DNA from: a virus
Lineage: Duplodnaviria; Heunggongvirae; Uroviricota; Caudoviricetes
Direction: 5' to 3' (one strand)
IMG/VR virus record: IMGVR_UViG_2563366928_000005
Span: 1-39,863 of that record
Length of the DNA: 39,863 nucleotides
Numbering within the stretch: position 1 is the stretch's first letter; every line of letters begins with the position of its first letter. Shown here in pieces: positions 4,278 through 18,620 of this stretch. The position numbers and the translations under genes were made by a program. The notes beneath the pieces are model-generated. The model was not told where the DNA came from. It made no database searches and saw only the letters and a program-made list of their open reading frames with translations.

Positions 4278-4848
4278 TATCGCGTCCTCAACAATGAATT
4301 TTGTGATGCAGTGCCTGGTGCCTCCAGGTGACGTTAACCAGTTAACAATTAACGCCGGGTTAGTTGATGCTCGTTACGCCCGTAAAATACCGCCTTACTG
4401 CTTTAACTGTTCCGCGTGCGCATAGCCGCATTCACCGCATCACAAAATTCACTTTAAAAAGGGCGGCAGAGCAGTCACGGAGTAAAACTGATACCGCCAA
4501 ATGTCACCAGAAAATTGATAACAGAGGGCGTTGTAGCGGGGTTGTCACTTAAGCGTATGGTCAACCTGACAACCCGGTGCATTTTCTGGAGCAATGGAGG
4601 AAACCCCAGCCATACTTACCGCCGCGCCATTTCGCGGAGTGCCACAACCGGAAGCGCACGGTCGAACTAAATTTAACGACACCGTACAGAGAGACCAATT
4701 TCGCCGTGCGCTTTCGCGTTATGCCCTGACTTTTCAGGGACATATCCTTTCAGTAAGCTGTCAGTGCCGGATGCTCACCCGTGTCCGGCGCACGCACTCC
4801 ACCTGACCCGTGGAGAACTCCTTAATTACCAACCCTCAGGAGGGTGAA

Positions 4849-10939: not shown

Positions 10940-11176
10940 TTTTATGGATCACCTTTCTGATTGATTTCATATTGGCGAGGTGACGTGAGTTAAGTAGAAT
11001 GGCTGCGGGTGCTTGAGGCTATCTGTCTCAGGCATGAACACTGAAAGGCAGATAGAGAAAAGCCCCAGTTAACATTTCGCGTCCTGCAAGACGCTTAACA
11101 TTAATCTGAGGCCCAATCTATGTCTCACAAATGTAGGTTAGCCTCTTACGTGCCGAAAGGCAAGGGGAAGCAGGCT

Positions 11177-11332
11177 ATGAAGCAGCAAAAGGCGATGTTA
11201 ATCGCCCTGATCGTCATCTGTTTAACCGTCATAGTGACGGCACTGGTAACGAGGAAAGACCTCTGCGAGGTACGACTCCGAACCGGCCAGACGGAGGTCG
11301 CTGTCTTCACAGCTTACGAACCTGAGGAGTAA
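11177..11332 (+). CDS. hok: Hok/Gef-family type I toxin
   Basis: MKQQKAMLIALIVICLTVIVTALVTRKDLCEVRLRTGQTEVAVFTAYEPEE is nearly identical to HokD/RelF as I recall it; followed by a strong terminator. Confidence 0.85.
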   Translation: MKQQKAMLIALIVICLTVIVTALVTRKDLCEVRLRTGQTEVAVFTAYEPEE

Positions 11333-12829: not shown

Positions 12830-13195
12830 ATGACTGAACGCATAGAATTTGTTTTGCCTTACCCGCCAACGGTGAACACTTACTGGCGACGTCGTGGCAG
12901 CACATATTTTGTATCAAAAGTCGGTGAGCGTTATCGCCGTGATGTGGCGCTTATTGTTCGCCAGCAGCAACTGAAATTAAACCTGTCCGGAAGGCCGGCA
13001 ATAGAAATTATTGCAGAGCCACCGGATAAGCGCCGTCGTGACCTGGACAATATCCTGAAGGCACCACTGGATGTACTGACGCATGCGGGGCTGCTCATAG
13101 ACGACGAGCAGTTTGATGAAATTAATATTGTGCGCGGTCAGCTTGTTCCTGGTGGGCGGTTGGGGATAAAAATCACAGAACTGGAGTACGCATGA
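12830..13195 (+). CDS. rusA: Holliday junction resolvase RusA
   Basis: 121 aa; DKRRRDLDNILKAPLDVLTHAGLLIDDEQ and GGRLGIKITELE closely parallel RusA. Confidence 0.85.
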   Translation: MTERIEFVLPYPPTVNTYWRRRGSTYFVSKVGERYRRDVALIVRQQQLKLNLSGRPAIEIIAEPPDKRRRDLDNILKAPLDVLTHAGLLIDDEQFDEINIVRGQLVPGGRLGIKITELEYA

Positions 13196-13881
13196 ATAAC
13201 CAGTATTTACAGTTTGTTCGTGAGCAACTCATGATTGCCACCGCCGATTTGAGTGGATCAACAAAAGGGCAGCTTGAGGCCTGGCAGGAGAATGCCATGT
13301 TTGATACAGGGCGTTACAGGCGTAAAAAAATCCGGTACCGCGATGAAGTGACTGGAAAAATGATAACGCGGGATAATCCACCAATCCCGGGAAAGCAATC
13401 GCTGGCGAAGGGGGTGTCAATTCCTCTCGTCAGTCCGGTTGAGTTTTCGACATCATCGTGGCGGCGGGCTGTTCTGTCTCTTGAAGAACATCATAAAGCC
13501 TGGTTGTTGTGGTGTTACAGCGGGAGTATTTGTTGGGAATATCAGATCGCGATAACGCAGTGGGTGTGGAATGAATTTAAAACCCGGTACGGCACCAGAA
13601 AAATTGCAGGGAAAACGCAGGAGCGCGTGAAGAAGTTGATCTGGCTGGCGGCACAGGATGTCAGAGGATGGATTACCGGGTGTGAGGTCTACCAGAGACA
13701 GGAGCTTGCCAGACTGTGTGGAGTTAAGCCTGATAACTGGAGCCATAATTATGCGAACTACTGGCGTGAGATGTGCGATATTTTTAAGAGTCTCGATAGA
13801 GAATCTGTGATTTGCACCGTGAAAATAAGAGCGCAACAAAAAGCGACTTTTTCACGACGAGATATTGCAAAAGTCAATTAA
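13192..13881 (+). CDS. Putative late antiterminator, Q-like (by position)
   Basis: 229 aa, overlaps the rusA stop (ATGA), last gene before a terminator; no lambda-Q zinc-finger motif seen. Confidence 0.4.
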   Translation: MNNQYLQFVREQLMIATADLSGSTKGQLEAWQENAMFDTGRYRRKKIRYRDEVTGKMITRDNPPIPGKQSLAKGVSIPLVSPVEFSTSSWRRAVLSLEEHHKAWLLWCYSGSICWEYQIAITQWVWNEFKTRYGTRKIAGKTQERVKKLIWLAAQDVRGWITGCEVYQRQELARLCGVKPDNWSHNYANYWREMCDIFKSLDRESVICTVKIRAQQKATFSRRDIAKVN

Positions 13882-13942
13882 ATAGCGTACGTTTCGTATA
13901 AATCTGATATTTTGCCGATTTTGTACGCGATGGCAAAGTAAG

Positions 13943-13973
13943 AAAAAAAACTGCCGTCAGGCGGTTTTTTTTT
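13943..13973. terminator. Rho-independent terminator, bidirectional in appearance
   Basis: A8 run, CTGCC-GTCA-GGCGG hairpin, T9 run. Confidence 0.6.
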
Positions 13974-14095
13974 ATGCCCAAAATCGCGTCAGTACAGTAA
14001 ACACGCTGGTGGTTGCGAATACGGGTCTTTCAGCTTGCTGGCTTTTTCGACAAGAGTTATTGGTATGTCACGTTAACCGGAAAAAGGAAAAAGAC

Positions 14096-14293
14096 ATGCT
14101 AAAACAGCAGGATATGACAGAAACCGCCAGAGTGGTGTTTAATGAATTAAGCGTTACCGAACCGGCGACAGTCGGGGAGATAGCGCAGAATACTTACCTT
14201 TCACGCGAACGCTGCCAGTTAATACTGACCCAGCTGGTTATGGCGGGTCTGGCAGACTATCAGTTCGGTTGTTACAGACGCCTTCAGTCCTGA
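14096..14293 (+). CDS. Small hypothetical protein, possible DNA-binding
   Basis: ATG at 14096 after AAGGAAAAAG; 65 aa; stop lies inside the terminator hairpin. Confidence 0.35.
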   Translation: MLKQQDMTETARVVFNELSVTEPATVGEIAQNTYLSRERCQLILTQLVMAGLADYQFGCYRRLQS

Positions 14294-14308
14294 AGGCTTT
14301 TTTATTTG
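14278..14308 (+). terminator. Rho-independent terminator
   Basis: GCCTTC-AGTCCT-GAAGGC hairpin followed by TTTTTTATTT. Confidence 0.55.
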
Positions 14309-14443
14309 TGGTAAATGGGCGGCTGGTGGGTGTTAGGGGCACCCACCAGCCATCTGCTCATGCGTTGGGTTCACAAGCAAACCTCAGGCCCACTGCTTTG
14401 CGCAAAAGCAGAATGAGCCTATCAGAGACAGGCTTAATGATCC

Positions 14444-15493
14444 ATGCTTAATACTGTAAAAATATCCAGTTGTGAGTTAATCAACGCCGACTGCCTGGAA
14501 TTTATCCGGTCGTTACCCGAAAATTCTGTTGACCTGATAGTCACGGACCCGCCGTACTTTAAAGTGAAGCCTGAGGGCTGGGATAACCAGTGGAAGGGCG
14601 ACGATGATTACCTGAAGTGGCTGGACCAGTGTCTGGCGCAGTTCTGGCGGGTGCTGAAACCTGTCGGAAGTCTTTACCTGTTCTGTGGTCATCGCCTGGC
14701 ATCTGATATCGAAATCATGATGCGTGAACGCTTCAGTGTGCTGAACCATATTATCTGGGCGAAGCCGTCCGGACGCTGGAACGGATGCAACAAGGAAAGC
14801 CTGCGGGCGTATTTCCCCGCCACAGAGCGCATTCTGTTCGCGGAACATTATCAGGGGCCGTATCGTCCGAAAGATGCCGGGTATGCGGCGAAGGGCAGTG
14901 CACTGAAACAGCATGTGATGGCCCCGCTGATTTCTTACTTTCGTGATGCGCGCGCTGCCCTGGGGATAACGGCAAAACAGATTGCAGATGCCACAGGAAA
15001 GAAAAACATGGTGTCGCACTGGTTCAGTGCCAGTCAGTGGCAGCTACCGAACGAAAGCGATTATCTGAAATTACAGTCGCTGTTTGCCCGGGTGGCAGAA
15101 GAGAAACATCAGCGCGGTGAACTGGAAAAGCCCCACCACCAGCTGGTGGATACGTATACGTCACTGAACCGGCAGTATGTGGAGCTGCAGAGTGAATATA
15201 AGCATCTGCGGCGGTATTTTGGTGTGACGGCGCAGGTGCCGTACACGGATGTGTGGACACATAAACCGGTGCAGTTCTATCCCGGGAAACATCCGTGCGA
15301 AAAACCGGCAGAAATGCTGCAGCAGATAATCAGCGCAAGCAGTCGTCCGGGTGACCTGGTTGCAGATTTTTTTATGGGCTCAGGTTCAACGGTAAAAGCG
15401 GCACTGGCGCTTGGGCGTCGTGCGATTGGCGTTGAACTGGAGACCGGACGTTTTGAGCAGACAGTCAGGGAAGTTCAGGATTTAATCGTTTGA
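14444..15493 (+). CDS. DNA methyltransferase, beta-class amino-MTase (N6-adenine or N4-cytosine)
   Basis: DPPY motif (LIVTDPPYF) near the N-terminus and FxGxG SAM-binding motif (DFFMGSGST) near the C-terminus; no adjacent endonuclease. Confidence 0.85.
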   Translation: MLNTVKISSCELINADCLEFIRSLPENSVDLIVTDPPYFKVKPEGWDNQWKGDDDYLKWLDQCLAQFWRVLKPVGSLYLFCGHRLASDIEIMMRERFSVLNHIIWAKPSGRWNGCNKESLRAYFPATERILFAEHYQGPYRPKDAGYAAKGSALKQHVMAPLISYFRDARAALGITAKQIADATGKKNMVSHWFSASQWQLPNESDYLKLQSLFARVAEEKHQRGELEKPHHQLVDTYTSLNRQYVELQSEYKHLRRYFGVTAQVPYTDVWTHKPVQFYPGKHPCEKPAEMLQQIISASSRPGDLVADFFMGSGSTVKAALALGRRAIGVELETGRFEQTVREVQDLIV

Positions 15494-15543
15494 AACGGAT
15501 GAGATTGCAGAATTAATTACGCACCATTATTATTCTGCTCCCG

Positions 15544-15618
15544 GCCCTTTAGCTCAGTGGTGAGAGCGAGCGACTCATAATCGCCAGGTCGCTGGTTCAA
15601 ATCCAGCAAGGGCCACCA
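15544..15618 (+). tRNA. tRNA with CAT anticodon, most similar to tRNA-Ile2 (lysidine type); Met not excluded
   Basis: Cloverleaf folded by hand: acceptor GGCCCTT/AAGGGCC, D-arm, anticodon loop CTCATAA, T-arm GCTGG-TTCAAAT-CCAGC, encoded CCA. Confidence 0.85.
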
Positions 15619-15625
15619 TCACATA

Positions 15626-15702
15626 CCGCCATTAGCTCATCAGGAAAGAGCGCCAGCTTTCGAAGCTGGTTGCGCGGAGTTCGGGTCCCCGAAGGCGGTC
15701 CA
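15626..15702 (+). tRNA. tRNA-Arg-like (anticodon TCG), imperfect stems; possibly degenerate
   Basis: Acceptor CCGCCAT/AAGGCGG has one A-A mismatch; anticodon stem CCAGC/GCTGG, loop TTTCGAA; T-stem has one mismatch and atypical loop TTCGGGT; CCA encoded. Confidence 0.5.
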
Positions 15703-15715
15703 TTATCTGTATCCT

Positions 15716-15792
15716 GCGTTGTTAGCTCAGCCGGACAGAGCAATTGCCTTCTAAGCAATCGGTCACTGGTTCGAATCCAGTACAACGCGCCA
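15716..15792 (+). tRNA. tRNA-Arg (anticodon TCT)
   Basis: Acceptor GCGTTGT/ACAACGC, anticodon stem-loop ATTGC-CTTCTAA-GCAAT, T-arm ACTGG-TTCGAAT-CCAGT, encoded CCA. Confidence 0.9.
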
Positions 15793-15835
15793 CACTTATT
15801 TTCCCTGGCTCGCTTTTGCGGGCTTTTTTTAAATG

Positions 15836-16052
15836 TCTCACAATTCAGGCGGTTGACTGTTGTCTGGTTTGCGGGGAGTTTGTTAAAAGAAACTGGCATG
15901 GTGAATCCCCCTGTGCGGAGGGGCAATCAGCGAGTAGGTATATGGGATAATCGCGGATTCAGGTGCTGGTACTGAATTCACCGGGAGGCACCCGGCACCA
16001 TGCAATGGCACATAGCGCCACTCTCCAGCCCCTCTCCGGAGGGGCTTTTCTG
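15836..16052 (+). repeat. Promoter/terminator-like module, copy 1
   Basis: Blocks shared with copy 2: CTCACAATTCAG + TTGACT (15853..15858), TTTGTTAAAA, GCATGGTGAATCCCCCTG-GCGGAGGGGC hairpin, CACCGGGAGGCACCCGGCACCATG, terminator-like CCCCTCTCCGGAGGGGCTTTT (16029..16049). Confidence 0.6.
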
Positions 16053-16240
16053 TGCCGGATACATCACAGTTTCTGGAACCTTAGGTACTACAGTATCAGT
16101 CAGGGTGCTATATTTTCAGATGTGATGAAAGCCTGTCAGCAGGCAGGGCGTATCGGAAATGACCCAGTAGAGAAAACGTTGACTCAGATACCGGTGCTGA
16201 GTTACCGGGAAACCGGCATCACATGACCGCTATCCTTCCA

Positions 16241-16267
16241 GGCCCATCCGCTCCGGTGGGCCTTTTT
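16241..16267 (+). terminator. Rho-independent terminator after two short ORFs
   Basis: GGCCCA-10 nt loop-TGGGCC followed by TTTTT. Confidence 0.55.
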
Positions 16268-16304
16268 ACTGCAGAAAACAGGTTCCCCGTTAAATGCTAT
16301 GTTG

Positions 16305-16540
16305 CTCACAATTCAGTAAGTTGACAGTTGCCTGTCAGACTGGGCATTTGTTAAAAAAATTTCGCATGGTGAATCCCCCTGAGCGGAGGGGCGACTGGTG
16401 ACGGTATAATCTCTGATTATCAAAACGAGAATGACGCGGGTTTAGTGGCACCGGGCTGAACTCACCGGGAGGCACCCGGCACCATGTGCATGATGATACA
16501 GATACGCGGCTTTAGCCCCTCTCCGGAGGGGCTTTCTTAT
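16305..16540 (+). repeat. Promoter/terminator-like module, copy 2
   Basis: Same five blocks as copy 1; consensus TTGACA at 16321..16326 and TATAAT at 16405..16410 (too far apart to pair); terminator-like hairpin at 16516..16538. Confidence 0.6.
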
Positions 16541-16766
16541 GGACAAAAAAAGCCCGCGCTGGGAGACGCGGGCGGCAAGGAATAAACAATAAAACGTGAA
16601 GTAATATTTCAGCTGGCGAATAATACCCCATAGTAATCACTCTGCGCAACTGCGCGGTCTTTTTCGAATTGCGGGCTGTAGTCTCCCTTCTGCCATTGTC
16701 CTGTAACTTCCGGACTTCAGCCTGCTCCTTATCTGACTCACAACATTATCCCGCCCGGGAGGATTC

Positions 16767-18620
16767 ATGGCATTTAAACACTATGACGTGGTCAGGGCGG
16801 CATCGCCGTCAGACCTTGCGAAACGACTGACACAAAAACTGAAGGAGGGCTGGCAGCCGTTTGGTAGTCCGGTGGCCATAACCCCTTATACCCTGATGCA
16901 GGCGATTGCAGCAGAAGGTGATGTGGTCGTCAGTGGTGCAACTGAGCCGGAGTGGTACTACGTCATCGTACTGGCCGGGCAGTCCAATGCCATGGCTTAC
17001 GGTGAAGGGCTTCCGCTTCCGGATTCATACGATGCGCCCCATCCGCGCATTAAGCAACTGGCCCGTCGTAACACAGTGACTCCCGGTGGTGAAGTATGCG
17101 TATTTAACGACATCATTCCTGCTGACCATTGTCTGCATGATGTTCAGGATATGAGTACGATTAACCATCCCCGGGCTGACCTGAGCAAAGGGCAGTACGG
17201 CTGTGTCGGACAGGGCTTACATATTGCCAAAAAACTGCTTCCGTATATCCCTAATAATGCGGGGATCCTGCTGGTACCATGCTGTCGTGGTGGTTCGGCA
17301 TTCACCCAGGGCACGGAGGGGACATTCAGCGAGTCCACGGGAGCCAGTCAGGATTCGGCTCGCTGGGGAGTGGGTAAGCCGTTATATCAGGATCTGCTTT
17401 TCCGCACGAAGGCAGCATTGCAGAAAAACCCGAAAAACGTTTTGCTGGCGATATGCTGGATGCAGGGGGAATTCGATATGACGAATGCCAGTTACGCCCA
17501 GCAGCCAGCAGCATTTCTTGCAATGGTACAGCAGTTCCGTGCTGACCTTGCCGGGCTGGCGGCGCAGTGTCACGGTGGAAGTCCGGCATCAGTCCCCTGG
17601 ATTTGTGGCGACACGACATACGCGTGGAAACAAGAACACGGTACGCAATATGAAGTGGTATATGGTGCATATAAAGGTAAAGAATCCCAGCAGATTTATT
17701 TTGTTCCCTTTATGACCGATGGTAGCGGAGTTAATACACCGACAAACAACCCGTCAGAAGATCCTGATATTGCCGGGTCTGGTTATTACGGTTCGGCATC
17801 CCGAACGAACAAAAACTGGGTATCATCAAATCGCCCGACGCATTTCAGCTCATGGGCGCGTCGTGGCATTATTCCCGATCGTATGGCAACTGCTATTCTG
17901 AACGTAGCCGGTCGCACCTTAGCCTTCATTAGTGGTAAGGCACCGGAAATCAAACCCTCGCCCGGCGGCGACACGCCATCGGGGCCGTCTGAAGATGCAT
18001 CCATACGCACAATCTCCCTGTTGCCGACAGCCGGAGACGCTGCTGCGCAGGGCTGGAGCATTAAGAATGGCGGAATTCAGTTGTCAGATGGTGTATTTAA
18101 GATCACCAAGCAGAGCAATAAAGCCTGGTCCCTGACGCGCCCGGTGGATGACGCAGTCTCCCTGCTGACACGGGGTGGCAGACTGAGCTGTAAGTTTCGA
18201 CTGTCAGGCGCACTGACCAACAACCAGTTCGGTCTGGGAATTTATCTGTATACCGATGTAGCGTTACCTGACGTCGTGGCGATGACCGGGACTGGTAACC
18301 CGTTCCTGATGTCGTTCTTCACCCAGACCACAGACGGCAAACTGAATCTGATGCATCACAAGAAAGCAGGAAACACAAAGTTGGGCGAGTTCGGGAATTA
18401 CAGTAACGACTGGCAGACGCTGGAGCTGGTGTTCACCGCCGGCAGTGCCACGGTTACTCCGAAACTGAATGGAGTGGCTGGCCCGGCATTCCAGGTCATA
18501 AAAGACAGTCTGACACTGGGGCTGAATGCGCTGACGCTGACGGATATTACCAAAAATGCAGCGTATGGCGTTGAGATAGAAAGTCTGGTGCTGGAGATAA
18601 ATGCACCGGCATCATCATAA
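16767..18620 (+). CDS. NanS-p-like sialate O-acetylesterase (N-terminal DUF1737-like region plus SASA/DUF303 domain)
   Basis: 617 aa; GQSN block (IVLAGQSNAMAYGEG) typical of SASA esterases; GGGAGGA RBS; sits where Stx phages carry nanS-p. Confidence 0.75.
   Translation: MAFKHYDVVRAASPSDLAKRLTQKLKEGWQPFGSPVAITPYTLMQAIAAEGDVVVSGATEPEWYYVIVLAGQSNAMAYGEGLPLPDSYDAPHPRIKQLARRNTVTPGGEVCVFNDIIPADHCLHDVQDMSTINHPRADLSKGQYGCVGQGLHIAKKLLPYIPNNAGILLVPCCRGGSAFTQGTEGTFSESTGASQDSARWGVGKPLYQDLLFRTKAALQKNPKNVLLAICWMQGEFDMTNASYAQQPAAFLAMVQQFRADLAGLAAQCHGGSPASVPWICGDTTYAWKQEHGTQYEVVYGAYKGKESQQIYFVPFMTDGSGVNTPTNNPSEDPDIAGSGYYGSASRTNKNWVSSNRPTHFSSWARRGIIPDRMATAILNVAGRTLAFISGKAPEIKPSPGGDTPSGPSEDASIRTISLLPTAGDAAAQGWSIKNGGIQLSDGVFKITKQSNKAWSLTRPVDDAVSLLTRGGRLSCKFRLSGALTNNQFGLGIYLYTDVALPDVVAMTGTGNPFLMSFFTQTTDGKLNLMHHKKAGNTKLGEFGNYSNDWQTLELVFTAGSATVTPKLNGVAGPAFQVIKDSLTLGLNALTLTDITKNAAYGVEIESLVLEINAPASS

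Follow-up and report, generated by a model that had tools for sequence, protein, structure and literature searches.

A toxin-less moron slot in a lambdoid Escherichia coli prophage carries an array of small RNA genes of known families

We show that the interval between a tRNA cluster and an esterase gene in a 39,863-nucleotide stretch of Caudoviricetes DNA (IMG/VR record IMGVR_UViG_2563366928_000005, positions 1 to 39,863; this whole stretch is hereafter the window) is an array of prophage small RNA (sRNA) genes of known family, largely described before. Three tRNA genes (15543-15792) lie upstream of the array; a terminator-like hairpin with a T-run at 15807-15830 on the plus strand, found by terminator scan, ends the tRNA cluster and forms the left border; and the esterase gene downstream, nanS-p (16767-18620), encodes a SASA/NanS-type protein with SASA, DUF1737 and DUF6645 domains. 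A preliminary description of the sequence had given this order and remarked that the slot holds no toxin gene, as we also find. Stx2a phages and prophage Sp5 of E. coli O157 Sakai carry, in order, Q, tRNAs, stx2AB, one unit of the STnc100 RNA family and nanS-p. Since stx2AB stands there between the same tRNAs and the single unit, the slot occupied by the array is, by position, the toxin "moron" site, and in the window it likewise has Q (13192-13881) upstream and the esterase gene downstream. What fills this toxin-less slot is RNA genes, four of them in 0.9 kb. The 971-bp interval is 100% identical in prophages of E. coli CE10, avian pathogenic E. coli (APEC) O18 and many more, with holin and lysozyme genes downstream of the array in the identical CE10 locus; of 5426 complete E. 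coli genomes, 2870 contain some part of it and 353 contain all of it.

Two modules of about 220 bp, proposed in the preliminary description, are indeed direct repeats, at 15837-16057 and 16305-16544. Our repeat search resolved them into an 88-nt repeat (15837-15924 and 16305-16392, 80% identity), a 31-nt repeat (15972-16002 and 16456-16486, 97% identity) and a 22-nt terminator repeat (16027-16048 and 16514-16535, 100% identity), and the five shared blocks described earlier can all be read from the sequence in the order claimed. The contrast between conserved blocks and diverged spacers also held when the two copies, here units 1 and 3, were compared by segment: identity is 97% across the 5' helix and hairpin 1, 79% across hairpins 3 and 4 with the 3' helix, and 96% at the terminator, but 11% and 15% in two variable regions, V1 and V2. 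This block conservation is far beyond chance, and the blocks are kept in related phages.

The identity of both modules follows from a covariance search, which the preliminary description had proposed while considering a pair of small RNA genes as one of two alternatives. When the whole window was scanned against Rfam at curated thresholds, both modules matched RF02076 (STnc100) above its gathering score of 47 bits, unit 1 with 136.3 bits (15867-16057) and unit 3 with 165.4 bits (16335-16544); the E-values of the two modules are 4.5e-30 and 1.5e-37. A family model of our own, R1, built from 12 diverse units and trimmed to begin at GCAUGG, scores unit 1 at 171.2 bits and unit 3 at 167.9 bits. 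The RNA body of unit 1, supported by Rfam, R1 and its fold, spans 15896-16056 on the plus strand, where a closing helix (15896-15903 with 15995-16002) is followed by V2 (16003-16026) and a terminator (16027-16046) with its U-tract; within the helix, hairpin 1, V1 and hairpins 3 and 4 stand in that order. The body of unit 3, supported by Rfam and R1, spans 16364-16544 on the same strand, with its terminator at 16514-16533.

Units 1 and 3 are already known sRNA genes. In Sakai, Hfq-bound sRNAs occur at this position in at least eight prophages, as convergent pairs (Tree et al. 2014, PMC4104026), and EcOnc05, EcOnc06 and EcOnc27 were recovered there as peaks of Hfq cross-linking and analysis of cDNA (CRAC), with northern bands of ~222, ~177 and ~235/247 nt; the 247-nt form of EcOnc27 is destabilised without Hfq (PMC4104026, Table S2). 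The northern probe for EcOnc05, which lies in Sakai prophage Sp4, is the exact reverse complement of 15925-15959, with no mismatch. Starting where the last tRNA ends and including the terminator of unit 1, the Sp4 locus is nearly identical to the window: the two differ only by a pair of additional bases in the T-run that precedes the module and by two substitutions immediately past the terminator stem. Unit 1 is therefore essentially EcOnc05. The probe for EcOnc06, the Hfq-CRAC sRNA of Sakai Sp17, matches with one mismatch. Unit 3 is ~85% identical by blastn to the copy downstream of stx2B at an Stx2a phage locus (L002), where STnc100 overlaps EcOnc27 (sRNA103; PMC12711010).

Between the two modules lies a third, divergent copy of the family that the preliminary description overlooked. 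An E-value search of 15790-16790 returned a third STnc100 match at 16096-16269 (30.1 bits, E 1.7e-4), which misses the gathering score of 47 bits when Rfam is used alone. R1 scores this middle unit at 44.3 bits, with E-values from 2e-10 (316 kb searched) to 5.8e-10 (923 kb), and at 44.2 bits (E 1.8e-13) with filters off on 271 nt. Together with the fold and compensatory changes described below, these matches place unit 2 at 16120-16272 on the plus strand. A C/U-rich V2 is followed by a terminator at 16240-16263 with five U residues, essentially the one that had been predicted at 16241-16267, and an extended -10-like element, TGcTATATT, is found in the sequence at 16106-16114; a 91%-identical variant keeps this element, though the sequence upstream of it diverges. 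The middle subtype, in two sequence variants, is present in 673 of the 5426 complete genomes (12%) and in 5 sequenced phages; it follows a unit-1-type copy and precedes another unit in 11 of 11 loci examined, and in nearly all of the RefSeq rows listed no annotation lies beneath it. What we add to earlier work is modest: the three-unit array, the unannotated middle subtype, and the occurrence of the same core fold in the dicF-dicB spacer.

The middle unit overlaps two short open reading frames (ORFs), 16000-16125 and 16125-16226 on the plus strand, that the preliminary description had presented as coupled. The frames exist, joined by a TGATG stop/start overlap, with the second nested in frame in a listed ORF at 15963-16226; they are not genes. 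That they encode small proteins is extremely improbable. No Shine-Dalgarno sequence was seen upstream of either ATG, neither frame has a Pfam match, and the ATG of the first sits inside the conserved closing-helix strand CACCAUG. Followed across the family, the first frame gives 44 different products of 2-49 amino acids, with unrelated C-termini set by whatever lies past the terminator. In the second, read from the alignment, the five changes in the 91%-identical variant are all replacements, and four of them fall in hairpin 1 with pairing kept. Insertions and deletions among family members are not multiples of three, and the RefSeq pipeline PGAP calls neither ORF, placing a minus-strand pseudogene fragment over unit 1. 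Given the unconserved products, the lack of Pfam matches and Shine-Dalgarno sequences, the non-triplet indels and the silence of RefSeq, both ORFs are chance frames, and we record the region 16000-16226 as non-coding. In CE10, E2348/69 and Sakai, RefSeq also has hypothetical coding sequences or pseudogenes facing these sRNA genes from the other strand (L001 4087-4212, minus strand; L004 2801-3199, minus strand; L249 1180-1509, plus strand), which are probably annotation artefacts over structured RNA.

Minimum-free-energy folds computed with ViennaRNA give the same architecture in all three units, namely a long-range closing helix around several hairpins, a single-stranded linker and a Rho-independent terminator. 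The closing helix is GCAUGGUG/CACCAUGC, and UGUGAUG/CAUCACA in the middle unit; hairpin 1 is CCCCC/GGGGG, there GCCUG/CAGGC, with a variable stretch next to it; hairpin 3 is GGAUUCAG/CUGAAUUC, there GACUCAG/CUGAGUU; and hairpin 4 is CCGGG-AGGCA-CCCGG, there CCGG-GAAA-CCGG. Since its folds match despite the altered sequence, the middle unit retains every helix with both strands changed. Folding z-scores range from -1.7 to -2.4 and the reverse complements score alike, so single-sequence folding energy does not discriminate here, whereas covariation does. For the latter, we gathered 120 IMG/VR loci by a short family pattern, added reference loci and obtained a model-guided alignment of 110 matches, 68 of them distinct; plain MAFFT misaligned the middle unit. 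In the 68 distinct sequences, pairing holds in 98% of cells, and double changes affect 30 of the 37 pairs; none of 500 shuffles reached the observed values, and partner columns that had been slid along were 35-47% paired. The closing helix, hairpins, terminator and compensatory changes that characterise the STnc100 structure were thus all found. In a curated set of 26 divergent members, the closing helix occurs in at least six clearly compensating versions and hairpin 3 in many with pairing kept, while the GGUGAAU junction and the hairpin-4 sequence are almost fixed.

Family members hardly differ in the core helices, the GGUGAAU junction and the CCGGG-AGGCA-CCCGG hairpin, but two cassettes are hypervariable, V1 within the core and V2 directly upstream of the terminator. 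The V2 sequences of units 1 and 2, ACUCUCCAG and AUCCUUCCAG, are C/U-rich and anti-Shine-Dalgarno-like. Because V2 differs between the three units, the array would give three different seeds on one scaffold. At other IMG/VR loci, the family appears as single units, as triple arrays like that of the window or a variant of it, and at one locus as four tandem copies, the largest array seen (L009 2267-3350, minus strand, contig 2861053794_000003). Other loci have chimeric units, joining a unit-1-type 5' part to a 3' end of the type found in PasD, a family of sRNAs from enteropathogenic E. coli (EPEC) E2348/69, and V1 and V2 types combine differently among loci. These chimeras and mixed combinations suggest, from sequence comparison, recombination within the invariant blocks.

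Each unit is preceded by promoter-like sequence. The region upstream of unit 1 (15829-15895, plus strand) contains a -10-like TTAAAT (15829-15834), an TCACAATTCAG block (15838-15848), TTGACT (15853-15858) and a -35-like TTGTCT (15860-15865) separated by a 17-nt spacer from TTAAAA (15883-15888). The region upstream of unit 3 (16290-16363, plus strand) has the same layout, with TTAAAT at 16290-16295, TCACAATTCAG at 16306-16316, TTGACA at 16321-16326 and a -35-like TTGCCT (16328-16333), again 17 nt from TTAAAA (16351-16356). The hexamer spacing is conserved in both: in 58 distinct upstream regions, a -35-like TTG(T/C)CT or TTGA(C/T)T stands 17 nt from TTAAAA while the spacer sequence is free, and in a second set of 37 distinct regions the spacing is likewise fixed and the spacer sequence variable. 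TTAAAA ends 7-8 nt before GCAUGG, the position of the 5' end annotated for PasD2 (741157) from RNA-seq and from the sequencing of ligated interacting RNAs (RIL-seq), and the TGcTATATT element of the middle unit lies at the position matching TTAAAA. In Salmonella LT2, STnc100 promoter regions bind RpoD, as shown by ChIP-exo (PMC10794520). Units of the unit-1 and unit-3 types carry, in addition, a conserved TTAAAT-N3-TCACAATTCAG element ~60 nt upstream, in several otherwise unrelated contexts. Northern sizes track this block. EcOnc05 (~222 nt) and EcOnc27 (~235/247 nt) possess it and are ~60 nt longer than a GCAUGG start predicts, and EcOnc06, which has a PasD-type promoter without the block, runs at ~177 nt for a predicted 163 nt. 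By this analogy, units 1 and 3 may start at ~15840 and ~16308, or use both starts, and we dropped a GCAUGG start as the rule for all units. A reading of the TCACAATT block as a CRP site was rejected, because the block contains no more than a half-site.

The promoter-like hexamers, early transcribed hairpin and terminator of each module, together with its place in the late operon, are also what one would expect if the modules were duplicated late-promoter, Q-utilisation and terminator units, the first alternative of the preliminary description. This was not borne out, and we regard it as very improbable. PR' and its promoter-proximal terminator should lie immediately downstream of Q, and there the window offers a candidate of its own at 13882-13975: the Q gene (PF06323) is followed by an AT-rich region with a hairpin and T-run at 13953-13965. 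The modules, in contrast, start at 15829, 2 kb beyond this region and past a methylase gene and the three tRNAs. They neighbour several types of Q (PF06323 here, a 144-amino-acid Q in Sp5 and other Q or antitermination proteins in E2348/69), they also occur far from Q, downstream of stx2B, and they match a curated sRNA family. The plus-strand region 13882-13975, as the likely PR' region with its terminator at 13953-13965, would itself yield a short terminated transcript, by analogy with StxS.

Downstream of unit 3, our analysis uncovered a fourth sRNA gene, on the minus strand, that the preliminary description had also overlooked. A strong minus-strand terminator (16573-16552, followed by seven U residues) abuts unit 3, and a 235-nt stretch that runs from unit 3 up to the start of the esterase gene is ~95% like prophage PP6 of EPEC E2348/69, as estimated by eye from the alignment. 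The counterpart in PP6 (NC_011601 1444797-1444978, minus strand) is a RIL-seq Hfq-bound sRNA that its authors equate with EcOnc08/21/42 of enterohaemorrhagic E. coli (EHEC); the motif GGCAAGG is common to its targets, among which the cfa 5' untranslated region alone contributes 767 chimeras. In the window, a putative seed, CCUUGCC, lies at 16580-16574 and is complementary to this target motif. We set the extent of the gene, 5' end included, at ~16545-16727 on the minus strand by homology to the annotated EPEC sRNA. A shorter form of ~68 nt, from a TTGCGC-18-TATTAT promoter, was dropped in favour of the ~182-nt EPEC annotation and the ~271-nt EHEC northern band. A promoter scan gave a promoter-like site at 16773-16745; because this likely promoter overlaps the start codon region of nanS-p, transcription of the sRNA and of nanS-p may interfere. 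Searches of 15790-16790 with the Rfam models of AsxR and AgvB (RF02703 and RF02702) returned no match at E up to 5, and the same setup detects AsxR at 88 bits beside STnc100 in Sp5; an AsxR or AgvB identity for the minus-strand gene was accordingly rejected in favour of the EPEC PP6/EcOnc08 type. Unit 3 and the minus-strand gene are arranged tail to tail with their ends 5 nt apart, the plus-strand terminator at 16514-16533 facing the minus-strand one. The convergent layout recurs in Sp5, Sp4, Sp17 and EPEC PP6, and such dyads have also been described elsewhere (PMC7873438). A hairpin with a T-run, CTGCGCAACTGCGCGG, lies at 16642-16662 on the plus strand, upstream of nanS-p and inside the minus-strand sRNA region, and is kept in Sp5, Sp4, EPEC PP6 and an Stx2a phage.

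The density of terminators raises the question of whether the array is mainly an intrinsic terminator stack with the RNAs as by-products, shielding nanS-p, holin and the lysis genes from tRNA and moron promoters in the lysogen and, after induction, being ignored by Q-modified polymerase. The stretch from the tRNAs to the esterase has four plus-strand terminator-like hairpins, at 15807-15824, 16027-16046, 16240-16263 and 16514-16533, with a fifth at 16642-16657; the region 13800-16900 has 13 terminator-like sites where 3.0 are expected, and a position between PR' and the lysis genes would suit such a function. As a principal role, however, we find it quite improbable. A terminator stack needs neither a conserved, covarying 5' domain of 110 nt nor conserved promoter hexamers, it leaves the hypervariable cassettes unexplained, and homologs of the units are abundant Hfq-bound RNAs. 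Since the two roles are compatible, termination is better seen as a possible side function of the sRNA array than as an alternative identity.

Collectively, our results make it probable that the interval from the tRNAs to nanS-p is an array of four autonomous sRNA genes in a lambdoid E. coli prophage, in which three head-to-tail units belong to the STnc100/EcOnc27 (sRNA103)/EcOnc05-06/PasD family and the fourth converges on the third. Each unit would be transcribed in the lysogen from its own sigma-70 promoter and end at its own terminator; by analogy with its homologs, the RNA would bind Hfq through its 3' part and pair through V2 with host or prophage mRNAs. The fourth sRNA would be made from the opposite strand, and, once the prophage is induced, Q-modified RNA polymerase from PR' would traverse the entire array and reach the lysis genes. 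Judging from homologous RNAs, the array most likely serves to produce, in the lysogen, several Hfq-dependent sRNAs that act by base pairing with distinct seeds.

Several characterised systems are close to this array. EcOnc27/STnc100 of O157 Stx2 phages has the same fold and terminator, the same position before nanS-p and a convergent partner; the window differs in having no stx, three tandem units rather than one, and other V2 cassettes. EcOnc05 in Sp4 lies in the same order of tRNAs, unit, convergent EcOnc08 and nanS-p, but as a single unit, whereas in the window units 2 and 3 are found between unit 1 and the convergent partner. PasD1 and PasD2 of EPEC E2348/69 (Pearl Mizrahi 2021) are Hfq-dependent sRNAs confirmed by northern blot and RIL-seq (PMC8550237), which are reported to resemble STnc100 in structure and probably to have a common origin with it (Zhu, Shabalina and Storz, bioRxiv 2026). 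They pair with their targets via the linker before the terminator; the seed lies in V2. As with the window units, their genes are found in the late region, close to Q and the esterase gene, and they have the same fold, with R1 scores of 34-36 bits and weak Rfam STnc100 matches (41.4 and 37.7 bits). They differ in hairpin 4, V1, V2 and terminator, and their TTGACT-17-TTAAAA promoter has no TCACAATTCAG block. The PasD seed UGUGAG was not found in V2 of the three window units, and blastn puts these units in types of their own, the fold alone being common to both; assignment of the middle unit to PasD, PasA or PasC was rejected for lack of a blastn match. The dyads known from moron sites, AsxR/EcOnc27 and AgvB/EcOnc06, are likewise convergent tail-to-tail pairs between PR' and the lysis genes. 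In contrast to AsxR and AgvB, the partner in the window is of the EcOnc08/21/42 type, longer (~180-270 nt) and with a CCUUGCC seed.

Several points weigh against this reading of the array. The alignment behind the covariation counts was fitted to the model, and within STnc100 proper the stems barely vary, so that it is the divergent subtypes that supply the covariation. Units 1 and 3 have short U-tracts broken by other bases (UUUUCUG and UUUCUUAU), which is not ideal for Hfq binding or termination. The 5' ends do not agree on one start, those of PasD2 and EcOnc06 fitting GCAUGG and those of EcOnc05 and EcOnc27 a start ~60 nt upstream in TCACAATTCAG. Expression of this exact array and of the middle unit is argued by way of homologous RNAs. 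For STnc100-type members, the literature offers changes in fimZ and espA on overexpression and an in-silico match to stxB rather than a direct target. Lastly, the invariance of the core is extreme, more than a passive scaffold needs.

This last point leads to the possibility that the invariant core is itself the functional part, binding a protein (at the Hfq rim, ProQ or CsrA) or controlling processing, stability or translation in cis, in which case the array would be a sponge, a decoy or a series of leader-like elements. Conservation per column is ~92-99% in the core and ~55% in V1 and V2. A copy of this core that lacks a terminator occupies the spacer between DicF and the dicB start codon; R1 scores it at 35.8 bits in the window (4286-4440, minus strand), and its K-12 Qin counterpart reaches 35.5 bits (E 3.7e-10). 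In a Citrobacter genome the core lies, as judged by eye, directly 5' of an apparent GTG-start ORF. A GGA at the boundary of stem and loop in hairpin 4 is kept in all four subtypes and could be a protein-recognition motif, for example for CsrA, though it is a lead from reading the alignment only. We nevertheless consider this account of the array unlikely: the Hfq-CRAC peak of EcOnc27 covers its 3' 80 nt (hairpin 4, V2 and terminator), that of EcOnc05 covers most of the RNA, and the RIL-seq chimeras and seed of PasD map to V2, as fits ordinary base-pairing sRNAs. The GGA-bearing boundaries of the four subtypes read CCGGGAGGCA, CCUGGAGGCA, CCGGGAAA and GCGGGAGGC.

The element in the dicF-dicB spacer deserves a closer description. 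In the window, it sits between DicF (4461-4512, minus strand) and the dicB ORF (4277-4092, minus strand), and comprises a closing helix AUGCGGUG/CACUGCAU, the GGUGAAU junction and a CCUGG-AGGCA-CCAGG hairpin; its K-12 Qin counterpart (NC_000913 ~1649455-1649600; L246 956-1101) has no annotated feature in the RefSeq record. E. albertii has this element too, and related cores are found in Citrobacter, Kosakonia and Pluralibacter. Since the core recurs in this spacer without a terminator, it may have a function of its own in protein binding, processing or leader control. A single scan of genome contigs with a 14-base pattern, which gave mostly chance matches in high-GC genomes and sketches the taxonomic breadth only, returned six Enterobacterales matches, of which five proved to be family members (Pluralibacter, Kosakonia, Citrobacter, E. 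albertii and E. coli). A tentative and rather unlikely proposal is that the invariant core is an RNA domain with a function in its own right, widespread among enterobacterial prophages and serving in protein binding or in processing and stability. If true, the core would carry interchangeable seed cassettes in one setting, shuffled and stacked by recombination into arrays of three or four, and elsewhere would be a cis-acting leader, for example before dicB in K-12 Qin, where it is unannotated.

Besides DicF and the three tRNAs, the Rfam scan of the window detected a sok match (hok/sok-type toxin-antitoxin RNA; 11007-11182, plus strand, 120.5 bits) in the early prophage region. The tRNA gene at 15543-15618 (plus strand) is called tRNA-Met (CAT) by ARAGORN, and an identical gene is annotated in RefSeq as tRNA-Ile of the ileZ type with anticodon CAT.

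Our analysis indicates that the Shiga-toxin slot of lambdoid prophages, when it is toxin-less, is packed with regulatory RNA genes. Because the toxin-less slot holds these genes, commensal, extraintestinal pathogenic (ExPEC) and APEC strains share their sRNA chassis with EHEC and EPEC but have other seed cassettes. A divergent subtype found in 12% of complete E. coli genomes escapes the Rfam threshold and is unannotated in RefSeq, while automated annotation puts spurious ORFs and pseudogenes over these RNAs. The core in the K-12 dicF-dicB spacer is a tractable system for asking about the role of the core. While these gains are modest, they are concrete, and the layout of scaffold plus cassettes suggests a route by which prophages could diversify the target ranges of their sRNAs through recombination.

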